Positions 10,528 to 53,446 of a DNA stretch of 64,000 bases are shown here, piece after piece; the first letter of the stretch is position 1; each line of letters begins with the position of its first letter. The translations under genes were made by a program, and so were the position numbers. The notes beneath the pieces were generated by a model. That model ran no database searches, had not been told where the DNA came from, and saw only the letters and a program-made list of their open reading frames with translations. Source of the DNA: an uncultured delta proteobacterium (GTDB taxonomy: Bacteria > Desulfobacterota > Binatia > UBA9968); the NCBI GenBank assembly GCA_963804165.1, contig CAWDPO010000017.1:384001-448000 (forward strand), in the 5' to 3' direction.

Positions 10528-11742
10528 GTGAATACCACCAACGACATACTTAAAGGCGTGCGCATTGTCGCCTTCACCACCGGTTACGCCGGTCCGTACG
10601 CCGGCAGGTTGCTCGCCGGTTATGGCGCGGAAGTGATCAAGATCGAGTCCAAGAAGGGCGGTCTCGATACCTTTCGTCATTACGGCCAGCACAAAGACAT
10701 CGATGCGGCGCCGCGCTTTATCGAGTGCAATCTCGGTGTGCGCTCAATGGCGATCAATCTAAAGCATCCCACCGGCGCGCGGCTGATTCGCGAGCTGGCC
10801 GGAAAATCAGACGGGGTCTTGCAGAATTTCCGTCCTAGGGTCTTGGATAAATTGGGTTTAAGCGACGACGAGTTGAGAAAATCTAATGCAAAGCTTGTGA
10901 TCGTGAAACTTCCCGGCTTTGGCAGCGAGGGGCCGAAGAGCAGCTACGGAACCTGGGGTTTTAATCTCACGGCGTTTTCCGGCATGACCTATCTGTGGAA
11001 TCATCCGGAACAGGATCGTCCCATCGGCAGCCAAGGCGTCTATCCGGATCACTTGGGTTTCGTCATGGCGCCGACATTGATCGTCGCTGCGCTGCTCAAT
11101 AGCCGTCGCACGGGCAAAGGCGTGACCATCGATCTGGCGCAGATCGAAGGGACCGCGGCCGTTCTGGGCACGACCTATCTGGAGACGTCGGTCAACGGCG
11201 ATGATCCGCAACCCAAAGGCAATCACTACGCCGTTGCTGCGCCGCATGGTTGTTACCGCTGCCAGGGTGAAGACCGCTGGTGTGTAATCTCGGTCCGCGG
11301 CGACGACGAGTGGCGTGGATTCTGCCGCGTTATCGGACGCGGCGAGTTGGTGAGCGACGCGCGTTTTGTGAGTTTAGCGGCGCGGCTGGAGCAGCGCGCG
11401 GCGCTTGACGCAATCGTCGAGGAGTGGACTCGAGCGCGTCCCGCGGAAGAGGTGATGACGAAGCTGCAAGGGGCGGGCGTGCCGGCCGGTGTGGTGCAGA
11501 CCGGTGCCGATCTATCAAAAGATGCGCAACTGCGCCACAGAAACTATTTCGCCCCATTCGCCGATTCGCTGATCGGACCCTTTGAAATTCCACGCAGCGG
11601 TTTCTTGTTTCGCGGCGCGCAGGAAGAACCTTTGCGCTTGCCCAACCGCTTTGGCGCTGACAACGACGCGATTCTCAGTGAGCTACTCGGCTATGACCGA
11701 GCGACGATCGAGCAATGGCGCCAGGAAGAGATCTTGACATAA
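10528..11742 (+). CDS. Class III (CaiB/BaiF) CoA-transferase, probable catalytic subunit
   Basis: AGPYAGRLLA, GAEVIKIES, QNFRP, GFGSEGP, with Asp retained in GVYPDHL. Confidence 0.9.
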   Translation: MNTTNDILKGVRIVAFTTGYAGPYAGRLLAGYGAEVIKIESKKGGLDTFRHYGQHKDIDAAPRFIECNLGVRSMAINLKHPTGARLIRELAGKSDGVLQNFRPRVLDKLGLSDDELRKSNAKLVIVKLPGFGSEGPKSSYGTWGFNLTAFSGMTYLWNHPEQDRPIGSQGVYPDHLGFVMAPTLIVAALLNSRRTGKGVTIDLAQIEGTAAVLGTTYLETSVNGDDPQPKGNHYAVAAPHGCYRCQGEDRWCVISVRGDDEWRGFCRVIGRGELVSDARFVSLAARLEQRAALDAIVEEWTRARPAEEVMTKLQGAGVPAGVVQTGADLSKDAQLRHRNYFAPFADSLIGPFEIPRSGFLFRGAQEEPLRLPNRFGADNDAILSELLGYDRATIEQWRQEEILT

Positions 11743-11845
11743 CGTCTCGGTTTACGCCTGGAAGCGTTCACGAAACCATTCAAAGCGTCGCGAGTTAACG
11801 GAAAGTCGGCTGACGTTTCTTCACGTTTAGGAGATTGCATTGAAC

Positions 11846-11919
11846 TGTCATCCTGAGGCGAAGCCGAAGGATCTCGACTTTGAAACGAGTTTGAAATGCG
11901 AGATGCTTCGCTTTGCTCA
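11846..11919. repeat. REP-like palindrome interrupted by the IS; its right arm resumes at 13237-13244
   Basis: TGTCATCCTGAGGCGAAGCCGAAGGATCTCG...CGAGATGCTTCGCTTTGCTCA|GCATGACA. Intact family members lie at 26669 and 53334. Confidence 0.85.
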
Positions 11920-11939
11920 TCTATGAAAGCTTTGTCAAG

Positions 11940-12125
11940 GTGGCTGATATTCACATATCGATATTCCGTCAAAGGTTTTGAACAAACTTACTCATATCGT
12001 CCGTAGTCCTGCGCACCCGATGTTATCGGACTCATGCTATTCGCCGTCTTAAGCGGCAGAGGAAAATGCCACAGGGCTGTCGCAATCAGCATTCGAGCCT
12101 TGTTTGGCTCATGAGCGAAACGCGC
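11940..12125 (-). ncRNA. Putative bridge/seek RNA of the IS1111-type element
   Basis: Non-coding region downstream of the recombinase. An internal loop UUCGCUCA-[GAGCC/GGCUC hairpin]-AUGCUGA matches both halves of the insertion site. Ends are approximate. Confidence 0.7.
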
Positions 12126-13166
12126 TTAGCCCCGCGTGGACGACATCGGTTCCCGATAGGACTCTCCCTTCTTAAGCATCCAGAAAGCCGCCTCGGCCAA
12201 GTGTCGGGCGACCGCCACAATCGCTTTGCCATGACCGCGCCTGGCTTTGACGTTTTCATACAGCCGGCTGATATGTCGGTACTGGCAGCGCTCGCGGTTG
12301 AGCACCGCGCTGTTGGCCGCCTCGACGAAGGCCCACTTGAGATACAGGTTCACATCTTTGCGCACCCGCCCGTAGCGGATCTTGCCGCCACTGGAGTTCT
12401 CTCGCGGTACCAGTCCCGCATAGCTCGCCAACTGTTCGGCTCGGCCAAAGCGTTCGATGGTGCCGATCTCAGTCCAAATCACCACCGCCAGCATTTCACC
12501 GACCCCCGGCTCACTCTTCAAGTAGGTCGTCTGGGGGCAGGGAGCAAACGCTGCTTGCATCTTTGCTTCGATGACCTTGAGATTGGCTTGTACATGATCG
12601 AGTTCGTCAAGCATCAACTTCAGCGCTTCGCCGGTATGAGGGGGCAGTTTAGCCAGCAGTCCTTCGAGGATCTGTCGTCCCTGCTTGCCAAAGGCGTCGC
12701 TGATTCCGTCCACCTTAAAGCCGTACTTACTTATAGTGGCGTGAATCCGATTCTTGAGTTGGGTGCGTTGATTGCTCAACACCATGCGGGTGCGCGGCAA
12801 CTCCCGAGCGTCGCGCACCGCGGACGGGGGAATCCGGACCGTCGGCAGGGTTCCTGCCCTCTGCAAACGGTTCATTCCTTTGGCATCCAACTTATCGCTC
12901 TTGTTGACGCTGCCGATCATCAGCTTGGCCAAGCGTGCATTGACCAGTTGCGGACTCCCTTTTCCAACTTCGATCTCATCGACTACCCAGTACCAGTTCC
13001 CAACCGTCTCCACCGCCACGGGAGTTCCGGGATTCCACTTCTTGGTAAAGTTCTCGATGGTTCCACCAACGTGCGCGAGTTTGCACTCATAGAGCTTATC
13101 GCCCTTGTCGTTTTCCACTCGCGCCCAGCTGTAGTGCTTGTGAACATCCAATGCAATGTATTCCAT
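12126..13166 (-). CDS. IS110-family DEDD recombinase/transposase
   Basis: IALDVHK, VAVETVG, KSDKLDA (RuvC-like DEDD). C-terminal PGVG and GLVPRENSSGG...LKWAFVEAA. Confidence 0.96.
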   Translation of the reverse strand: MEYIALDVHKHYSWARVENDKGDKLYECKLAHVGGTIENFTKKWNPGTPVAVETVGNWYWVVDEIEVGKGSPQLVNARLAKLMIGSVNKSDKLDAKGMNRLQRAGTLPTVRIPPSAVRDARELPRTRMVLSNQRTQLKNRIHATISKYGFKVDGISDAFGKQGRQILEGLLAKLPPHTGEALKLMLDELDHVQANLKVIEAKMQAAFAPCPQTTYLKSEPGVGEMLAVVIWTEIGTIERFGRAEQLASYAGLVPRENSSGGKIRYGRVRKDVNLYLKWAFVEAANSAVLNRERCQYRHISRLYENVKARRGHGKAIVAVARHLAEAAFWMLKKGESYREPMSSTRG

Positions 13167-13357
13167 TTGCGATTTCCTCCTTCACCCGCCAGTCTAGTCA
13201 CTGACGCTGTGGATTCCATCGCTTTCATATTAATCAGCATGACACTTAAGTGTTTGGGCGGTTTGCGACCTGTGTAGGATCGGCGAGAGAGTGGATTTGG
13301 AGAAAGTTAGCCAGACCTCTCATAGTTTCTGTCGCGCGTTCGGTCGAGGGGGAAAAT

Positions 13358-14338
13358 ATGTTTGGAGTGTCCGCTTCCCTGGCGCTTTTCCTCGTATTCG
13401 TCGGTCAAGCTGAGATCACCTACGCGCAAGAGCCGGTTAAACTCCGTGCCAGCGTGGTGGCAAAAACGTTCGGCTTCGGCCCGCTCTGGGTGGCATCGAA
13501 GCAGGGATTTTTCAGCCAGCAAAAGCTCGACGTAGAAATTCTTCTGATTCGCGGGTCCGATGTATCCACTCAAGCATTAGCCGGCGGTTCGTTGCAAATT
13601 TCCGGCGCGTCTGCCGATGCGCCGATCGCCGCCTTTGATCGCGGCCTGGACATGGTGATTATCGGCGGCATCATCAATGGGCTGAGCCAATCGATCATGG
13701 CGGGCAAGAATTATAGGACCTACGAAGACTTGCGCGGCGCTACGCTCGGTGCCAATAGCCTCACCGCCGGGACGGCATTTGCTTTCCGGCGCGTGCTCAA
13801 AGCGAAGGGACTGGAATATCCGCGCGATTACAAACTGATTAACGTGGGCGGAACGCCGCAAGCGCTCGCGGCGTTAGCTTCGGGCCAAATCGCCGCAGCG
13901 CCGCTGTCGTTACCCGTAAATTACGTGGCCGAGGAGCAAGGATTCAATACCATCGGTCGCTTCATCGACGTTATCCCGCACTATCAGCTCTCGGTGTACT
14001 CGGTGCTTCGGCCCTGGGCGGAAAAAAATCGTGCGGTTGTCGTTCGCTTCATGAAGTCGATCGCACTGGCGGCGCGCTGGATTTACGCGAATAAGGATGC
14101 CGCGACGGATTTGCTCGCCAAGGAGATGGGCCTCAAGCGCGAATACGCGCGCAAAGGTTGGGAGTTTTACACCGAGAAGGGTCTTTGGAATCCGGTCGGT
14201 GACGTGACCCTCGACGGACTCGGCATCGTCGCACAAATCTACGCCGAACAGAATCAGTTGAAGACGCCGCCCAATCCGGCCAAGTTCGTCGACCAAAGTT
14301 ATCTGCGTGCTGCGCTAAAAGAGATGGATGGAAGGTAG
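13358..14338 (+). CDS. ABC substrate-binding protein, NMT1/SsuA-like
   Basis: Signal peptide, PLWVASKQGFF, EDLRGATLG, GGTPQALAALASG. Confidence 0.88.
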   Translation: MFGVSASLALFLVFVGQAEITYAQEPVKLRASVVAKTFGFGPLWVASKQGFFSQQKLDVEILLIRGSDVSTQALAGGSLQISGASADAPIAAFDRGLDMVIIGGIINGLSQSIMAGKNYRTYEDLRGATLGANSLTAGTAFAFRRVLKAKGLEYPRDYKLINVGGTPQALAALASGQIAAAPLSLPVNYVAEEQGFNTIGRFIDVIPHYQLSVYSVLRPWAEKNRAVVVRFMKSIALAARWIYANKDAATDLLAKEMGLKREYARKGWEFYTEKGLWNPVGDVTLDGLGIVAQIYAEQNQLKTPPNPAKFVDQSYLRAALKEMDGR

Positions 14339-26654: not shown

Positions 26655-26820
26655 GAGACTGTTCTCAATGTCATTCTGAGGAGTGGAGCGACGAAGAATC
26701 TGCTTTTGGTTTTGGGGTTTCGGACACCATGCCGATTCAACCCGAATACGGAAGAAAAAGCAGATCCTTCGCTAGGCTCAGGATGACGCAGGGCAAATTT
26801 TTGGATTGAGACACAGTCTC
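26655..26820. repeat. Composite REP-like palindrome
   Basis: TGTCATTCTGAG..GAAGAATCTGCTTTT / AAAAGCAGATCCTTCG..CTCAGGATGAC (26669-26787), inside the outer IR GAGACTGTTCTCAA / TTGAGACACAGTCTC. Confidence 0.8.
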
Positions 26821-53333: not shown

Positions 53334-53446
53334 TGTCATCCTGAGCCAGGGGCGAAGGATCTGCTTTCGTTCAGTGGCCGCGACGCTTGGATCGCGTGCA
53401 GGCTTGTAAAAGCAGATTCTTCGTCGCGGCGCTCCTCAGAATGACA
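53334..53446. repeat. REP-like palindrome, same family as the IS target
   Basis: TGTCATCCTGAGC..CGAAGGATCTGCTTT / AAAGCAGATTCTTCG..CTCAGAATGACA. Confidence 0.82.

Follow-up and report, generated by a model that had tools for sequence, protein, structure and literature searches.

A predicted guide RNA of an IS1111-type element and the repeated palindromes of an uncultured delta proteobacterium

How does a mobile element pick out one subtype of a palindrome that is scattered over a whole genome? The question is raised by an insertion sequence (IS) on contig CAWDPO010000017.1 (assembly GCA_963804165.1) of an uncultured delta proteobacterium, which lies within an arm of a palindrome resembling repetitive extragenic palindromes (REPs). 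We analysed a 64,000-nt stretch of this contig, referred to as the window, and coordinates are window positions unless another contig is named. An initial annotation had suggested that an RNA encoded just after the gene of an IS1111-type recombinase spells out the insertion site. Our analysis makes it very probable that this is an IS1111-type element of the IS110 family, in which a 346-aa recombinase is accompanied by a structured guide RNA of ~120 nt, encoded in the right end (RE) directly downstream of the gene. The anatomy of the element, its set of copies, an empty site and the covariation both of guides with flanks and of stem partners were read directly from the DNA.

The target loop and the insertion site

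The minus-strand RNA string at 12081-12124 is exactly as first given. It forms part of a target-binding module in which two short strands flank an inner hairpin (P3) and are enclosed by a 4-bp stem (P2) and an outer stem (P1; Table 1). In sense, the 5' strand, UUUCGCUCA, corresponds to the left flank plus core as read on the + strand, with 7/8 matches over the 8-mer originally considered, and would pair with the strand opposite that flank. Within the 3' strand, AAUGCUGA, TCAGCAT (13234-13240) is present as its exact reverse complement. The two strand matches have the insertion point in common, where they overlap, and the one to the top strand is the more 5' of the two in the RNA, as expected of a seekRNA or bridge RNA. 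Siddiquee 2024 (PMC11187229) describes this order for IS1111-type elements, together with a non-coding region downstream of the gene. Both guide matches, in the arrangement found, occurred in 61 of 300,000 mononucleotide shuffles of the 206-nt 3' non-coding region.

The stems are maintained across relatives. In an alignment of 36 sequences, 88.4% of the cells in the stem set are paired, versus 72.6% in shuffles and 32-41% with the partners slid, and the covariation score is 0.411 (0.133 in shuffles; 0.037-0.063 with partners slid). A piece of target captured passively, left behind by an inexact excision and playing no part in guidance, would leave target sequence repeated in both loop strands, as is seen here, but such an origin is scarcely credible. 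The two pieces are opposite in sense around a conserved hairpin and sit in stems kept by compensatory changes, and the same architecture is found with different targets in several phyla.

Insertion into the palindrome was precise. A natural empty site on another contig of the genome (C25), lacking copy L004, reads uninterrupted through the left flank, TCA and GCATGACA, which upholds the empty site reconstructed in the initial annotation. The 3-nt core TCA proposed along with it does not stand. Relatives in which the right flank starts with G (L013, L019, L025 and L026) share only CA (TG in the element's orientation) at their junctions, so the core is 2 nt; it looked like 3 nt because the element's terminal base T equals the adjoining flank base by chance. 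The contig segment with the empty site (C25:1-6926) is otherwise 97.0-98.6% identical to C20:82150-89976, which carries L004 and L009, both absent from C25. The pair reflects either a segmental duplication or the binning together of different strains (bin contamination 5%).

Palindrome subtypes and the covariation of guides with sites

The interrupted arm belongs to a large family. With both strands counted, the genome has 175 occurrences of TCAGNATGACA, in three subtypes set by the variable base N, which is A in 78 cases, G in 73, C in 24 and T in 0. There are 5 occurrences in the window, versus 0.03 in shuffles, and the family as a whole is found there at 11846-11917, 13234-13244, 26669-26788 and 53334-53446. 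The inner arm of each unit reads GAGAT-N'-CTTCG, and N' is the complement of N in the outer arm, which points to a hairpin formed by each single unit. Units pair head to head, mostly with unlike subtypes (27 G/A, 8 C/A and 2 C/G); one G/G pair was seen from both strands. The mismatch between the TCAGGAT and TCAGCAT arms around the window copy is normal for the family and therefore not insertion damage. Five unoccupied arms had been counted in the window, where we find 4 exact matches to TCAGNATGACA and 6 plausible ones at up to one mismatch. They are indeed all TCAGGAT or TCAGAAT, but TCAGAAT is not a plain non-target, being the arm type used by a sister lineage of this genome.

When the genome that contains the window (7.5 Mb, 46 contigs) was searched at the DNA level, 12 matches were obtained: 4 copies of lineage A (L001-L004, the window copy included; 99-100% identity), 6 near-full copies of lineage B (L005-L010; 80-82% identity to the window copy) and two pieces of one truncated copy. 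The 346-aa open reading frame (ORF) is intact in 7/9 complete copies and broken in L004 (209 aa) and L010 (222 aa). Lineages A and B are 82.3% identical over the whole element, 59.4% over the target loop (19/32 positions) and 98.5% over the next 65 nt, the proposed donor loop (64/65). The loop strands of lineage B are CGCGGCUCA and GAAUUCUGA, and its inner hairpin differs from that of A by compensating changes. The covariation between guide and target that the initial annotation had called for is present within this genome and, as described below, across relatives. Copies that share a loop do not lie at unrelated sites in this genome: all four lineage A copies are in TCAGCAT arms. All six lineage B copies lie in TCAGAAT arms, and no in-genome copy lies in any of the 73 TCAGGAT arms.

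Occupancy by lineage B was also tabulated against the contiguous match to its 5' guide. Sites with a match of 5 nt are occupied in 2/4 cases, those with 4 nt in 1/3, 3 nt in 1/7, 2 nt in 1/21 and 0-1 nt in 0/56; the table omits L009, whose far end runs off the contig, and one of the free 5-nt sites is the empty allele of L009. The left flanks of lineage B end in GCGGC (twice), TCGGC, AACGC and TGGGC, and the L009 site's empty allele on C25 likewise ends in GCGGC.

Relatives elsewhere extend this relationship to other targets. A protein-based scan gave 80 loci (40-84% identity) in Binatia, Nitrospirota, Chloroflexota, Rokubacteria, Acidobacteriota and others. Loops could be extracted by regular expression from 44/92 loci, giving 36 distinct loops, and the covariation counts hence describe the nearer half of the family; the other 48 loci are truncated, masked or more divergent, among them L028, whose RNA region (about 2250-2350) is masked by a run of N in the stored record. 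The 3' guide, taken as the last 5 nt before UG, matches the element's own left flank at 4/5 positions or better in 25/25 elements with a recognisable left end (LE), and these have 17 different left-flank 5-mers (by reading). The mean match is 4.24, versus 1.67 for non-cognate pairs, and 0 of 20,000 permutations were as high. For the 5' guide and the element's own right flank, core excluded, the mean longest exact run is 4.85 versus 3.15, again with 0 of 20,000 permutations as high, and a run of at least 5 is present in 12/26 elements versus 6% of non-cognate pairs.

Five Nitrospirota elements (L014, L015, L016, L041 and L080) have flanks of the same palindrome family (…TGTCAT-N-CTGA, …CGAAG-N-ATCT…), so the REP-like family and the IS family co-occur across phyla. 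Their 3' guides track the REP subtype, with AUCC in L014 and AUUC in the other four. L022 and L024 are preceded at the left end by a flank (…GGATTTGAACC…ACCTT) that resembles the terminal part of a tRNA gene of the opposite strand.

These data also bear on what reads the target. A protein that recognised the REP hairpin by shape, making the RNA-like matches irrelevant to target choice, would fit with all in-genome sites falling in one palindrome family and with the left guide being a poor predictor of lineage A occupancy. This is highly unlikely, since relatives insert at unrelated, non-REP sequences with matching loops, and the main difference between lineages A and B, which occupy distinct arm subtypes, is in the loop.

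Several observations weigh against target choice by this RNA or narrow the case for it. A scan of 11700-13400 against Rfam 15 (E up to 1) gave 0 matches. The 5' guide has C where 3/4 lineage A targets have T; with this C bulged out, the window site would match 8/8 (by eye). In lineage A, the contiguous match to the 5' guide fails to separate occupied from free TCAGCAT arms, the occupied sites having runs of 2, 2, 2 and 0 and some free ones runs of 3-4. By total matches, all occupied sites have 4-5/7, and 0 of 30 sites with 3 or fewer are occupied. The permutation counts overstate independence because the elements are related to one another. Finally, no empty allele of the window copy was found, including in reads or contigs from 4 metagenome runs. 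Comparison with the element showed these contigs to be fragmentary, the contig sets containing at most 0.32 of the words searched, and no joint across the element was found in them. Two other joints, 11939 to 12015 and 11946 to 12390 (opposite strands), were each seen in one contig with a short side.

Table 1. Positions of the element, its predicted RNA and its insertion site in the window (LE, left end; RE, right end)
Feature	Position	Strand	Remarks
REP-like palindrome left of element	11846-11917	.	Partner arm, inner arms and left part of interrupted unit up to core
Partner arm TCAGGATGACA	11846-11856	-	
Core CA (TG in element orientation), RE junction copy	11918-11919	+	Only bases common to both junctions in four relatives (see text)
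Insertion sequence, 1315 bp without core	11920-13234	-	Ends from 10 in-genome copies and two natural empty sites; RE at 11920, LE at 13234
Subterminal inverted repeat, RE arm ATGAAAGC	11923-11930	+	3 nt inside RE
TTGACA, -35-like hexamer	11933-11938	-	Ends 13 nt before RE terminus
Third hairpin, P6	12017-12029	-	Across relatives two outer pairs 85.7% paired, three inner pairs 40%
3' donor guide	12032-12041	-	AAUAGAUGA in other copies, equal to RE terminus plus core; extra base at 12036 in window copy
Donor loop inner hairpin, P5	12042-12058	-	97.8% of cells paired; 2/5 pairs changed on both sides
Donor loop 5' strand (proposed), CAUUUUCCUC	12059-12068	-	Pairing with LE only partial
Target-binding module of RNA	12071-12135	-	Fold; stem covariation
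Outer stem, P1	12128-12135 with 12071-12078	-	Compensatory changes in 8/8 pairs
Stem P2, 4 bp	12121-12124 with 12081-12084	-	Invariant in 36/36 sequences
3' target guide AAUGCUGA	12086-12093	-	Reverse complement of + strand TCAGCAT, 13234-13240
Inner hairpin, P3	12094-12111	-	Compensatory changes between lineages A and B; 4/5 pairs changed on both sides
5' target guide UUUCGCUCA	12112-12120	-	Same sense as + strand left flank plus core
Recombinase gene, 1041-nt ORF, 346 aa	12126-13166	-	Pfam PF01548 and PF02371
Subterminal inverted repeat, LE arm GCTTTCAT	13221-13228	+	6 nt inside LE
TAATAT, -10-like hexamer	13227-13232	-	Starts 2 nt inside LE
Core CA, LE junction copy	13235-13236	+	
Remainder of interrupted REP arm, GCATGACA	13237-13244	+	

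The element is intergenic and interrupts no gene, lying between a 404-aa ORF (10528-11742, +) and a 362-aa ORF (13250-14338, +). Two further observations concern the palindromes. Pfam Y1_Tnp (PF01797) is matched at 18 places in the genome (for example C15:112517-112879 and C17:3813-4139), many of them within open frames of ~320 aa; these candidate REP-associated tyrosine transposases could be the means by which the palindromes spread. On the minus strand of C17 (offset 294369 in reverse-complement numbering), a second TCA precedes a free TCAGCAT arm (…TTCGT TCA TCAGCATGACA) with a left flank resembling that of L003. The second TCA could be a natural variant or a footprint.

Proposed donor loop and mechanism

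Downstream of the target-binding module lies a proposed donor loop, two strands around hairpin P5. Its 3' strand equals the last 4 nt of the element's own RE (TAGA, GATA or GAGA) plus UG in 21/22 distinct elements. The sole exception is the window copy, with its extra base at 12036. Neither the 8 other in-genome copies that were aligned nor the contigs of metagenome runs X2 and X5 have this base. The donor loop escaped the initial annotation because of this private 1-nt insertion.

Covariation support for the donor loop, as read from these sequences, appears real but thin, and parts of the comparison count against it. On the protein tree the three donor-strand states need 3 changes, of which the well-supported branches force only 2. 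In the window's clade the donor 5' strand matches core plus LE at 3/6 positions next to the core and 7/11 overall, and a perfect complement of LE was rejected for this clade on these counts. In a more distant clade ~5-6 nt are complementary to core plus LE. A position 5 nt into LE seems, by eye, to covary in 7/8 clade members, but no weight is put on so small and closely related a set. A stem that would close the donor loop was also sought by eye in relatives; it came to only 3-4 inconsistent pairs and is not claimed.

With an extra base inside its donor guide, the window copy may be unable to move itself, which counts against the window copy as a working example of the system. It is possible, although we consider it doubtful, that this copy is crippled, the insertion at 12036 stopping its own RNA from holding the ends, so that it is immobile or moves only with the RNA of a sister copy. 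The extra base is private to it and breaks the one match of the donor strand for which covariation is seen among relatives, and two other in-genome copies, L004 and L010, are visibly decaying. Against this, the window copy has an intact 346-aa ORF and is >99% identical to its sisters; the extra base may stem from misassembly, the genome being a metagenome bin, and a 1-nt bulge may be tolerated. Moreover, an RNA of 82 nt was enough for ISEc11 (PMC11187229), so the second loop may be non-essential in the IS1111 type.

Guidance by the structured RNA suggests the following mechanism. The target loop would present two short guides around its inner hairpin. The 5' guide would pair with one strand of the core plus one flank, and the 3' guide with the other strand of the opposite flank plus core. 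Jointly, the two guides would fix both site and orientation of insertion, at a CA/TG core in the TCAGCAT subtype of a genome-wide REP-like palindrome. The 3' strand of the donor loop, as a copy of the RE terminus plus core, is taken to hold the circle junction. By analogy with known systems, the RNA would be made, bind the protein and be required, strand exchange would take place at the core and the intermediate would be a circle.

A circle would also bring together two promoter-like hexamers at the ends of the element. If the ends are joined through the 2-nt core, TTGACA of RE and TAATAT of LE are 17 nt apart (geometry only), and the recombinase and RNA could then be co-transcribed from the excised circle. 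A promoter formed at the circle junction has been described for the IS110 family (PMC12288879). No circle junction was found in the reads or contigs of the 4 metagenome runs, the contigs being fragmentary, and this counts against the predicted intermediate.

A more specific proposal is that the sister lineages split one REP family by rewriting the target loop alone, and that the donor loop's 5' strand has lost most of its complementarity to LE in this clade, with the donor captured by a half-guide (RE plus core) and LE held by the protein through the subterminal repeat. We put this forward tentatively, as an unlikely scheme on the present evidence. Half-guide donor capture, if true, would be a mechanistic variant of bridge recombination, distinct from the IS621 scheme.

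The recombinase and its relation to known systems

The recombinase supports the IS1111-type assignment of the initial annotation. It has both domains of the IS110 family, PF01548 (DEDD_Tnp_IS110, E 3.7e-11) and PF02371 (Transposase_20, E 3.3e-21), and scores 230.2 bits against NCBIfam NF033542, 'IS110 family RNA-guided transposase' (cut-off 140). Transposases of the IS1111 type have 330-350 aa and a GL-P----S(t)G motif (PMC11187229), in agreement with the 346 aa found here and GLVPRENSSG at residues 251-260, with Ser-Gly at S259-G260. The subterminal inverted repeats of 8 bp are within the 7-17 bp of the IS1111 group (PMC11208160), and the longer non-coding region is downstream of the gene (206 nt, versus 68 nt upstream), as is typical of the group. 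The C-terminal residues 214-337 align with the solved recombinases of IS621 (8wt6, E 2.6e-10) and ISCro4, at E about 1e-10. By likeness to IS621, D7, E53, D91 and D94 are candidate DEDD residues. Named relatives are distant: identity is at most 33% in the plasmid collection, and IS4321 and IS5075 align in one piece over residues 1-337 at only 23% (E 3e-11 and 6e-10).

The genome has at least two further multi-copy IS110-family lineages, at C34:140631-141638, C6:244528-245535, C34:114998-116005 and C15:59413-60420, and at C12:27142-28290 and C26:32216-33364.

The element adds a compact and cleanly delimited recombinase from an uncultured soil lineage, 346 aa plus ~120 nt of RNA, with readable guides. 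Its lineages A and B are a natural experiment within one genome, in which mainly the guides differ and different subtypes of one repeat are hit. They therefore make a convenient pair for studying guide rules, mismatch tolerance and donor recognition of the IS1111 type.

IS621 (Durrant 2024, PMC11208160; PDB 8wt6) offers a comparison. Both systems have a recombinase with DEDD and Ser features, target and donor loops with two guides each around a hairpin, and a 2-nt core; both insert into REPs and have a promoter at the circle junction. In the present case the donor loop and the junction promoter are predicted. The core is TG here and, unlike this, CT in IS621, and only the C-terminal domain of the protein (residues 214-337) is alignable by sequence. 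IS621, a member of the IS110 group, encodes its RNA ahead of the gene, in the left end, and its two strand matches come in the opposite order (PMC11187229).

That IS110-family elements insert into REPs has long been known, from IS621 and ISPpu9 (PMC12288879). ISPpu9 of Pseudomonas putida also has several copies, each at a fixed REP position and often in REP pairs, but it belongs to the IS110 group, lacks inverted repeats near its termini and uses an AG dinucleotide for recombination (PMC12288879).

Also close in design are IS1111-type elements with a seekRNA such as ISEc11 and ISXne4, themselves close relatives that have been naturally re-directed by changes in the loop (PMC11187229). The present element shares with them a GL-P----SG recombinase of ~340 aa, subterminal inverted repeats, a long non-coding stretch downstream of the gene, two short target matches (top-strand match 5') with an overlap where insertion takes place, and relatives re-directed via the loop alone. 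Unlike ISEc11 and ISXne4, it targets a subtype of a REP-like palindrome, and its re-directed pair, within one genome, splits the subtypes of one repeat family. Its protein is also distant from those of the named enterobacterial IS1111 members, as the identity to IS4321 and IS5075 indicates. For 93% of IS1111 elements, prediction places a bridge RNA with target and donor loops in the right end (Durrant 2024, PMC11208160). The architecture found here is that published in 2024; the element is therefore a further example of the described bridge/seek-RNA system and leaves the known mechanism unchanged.

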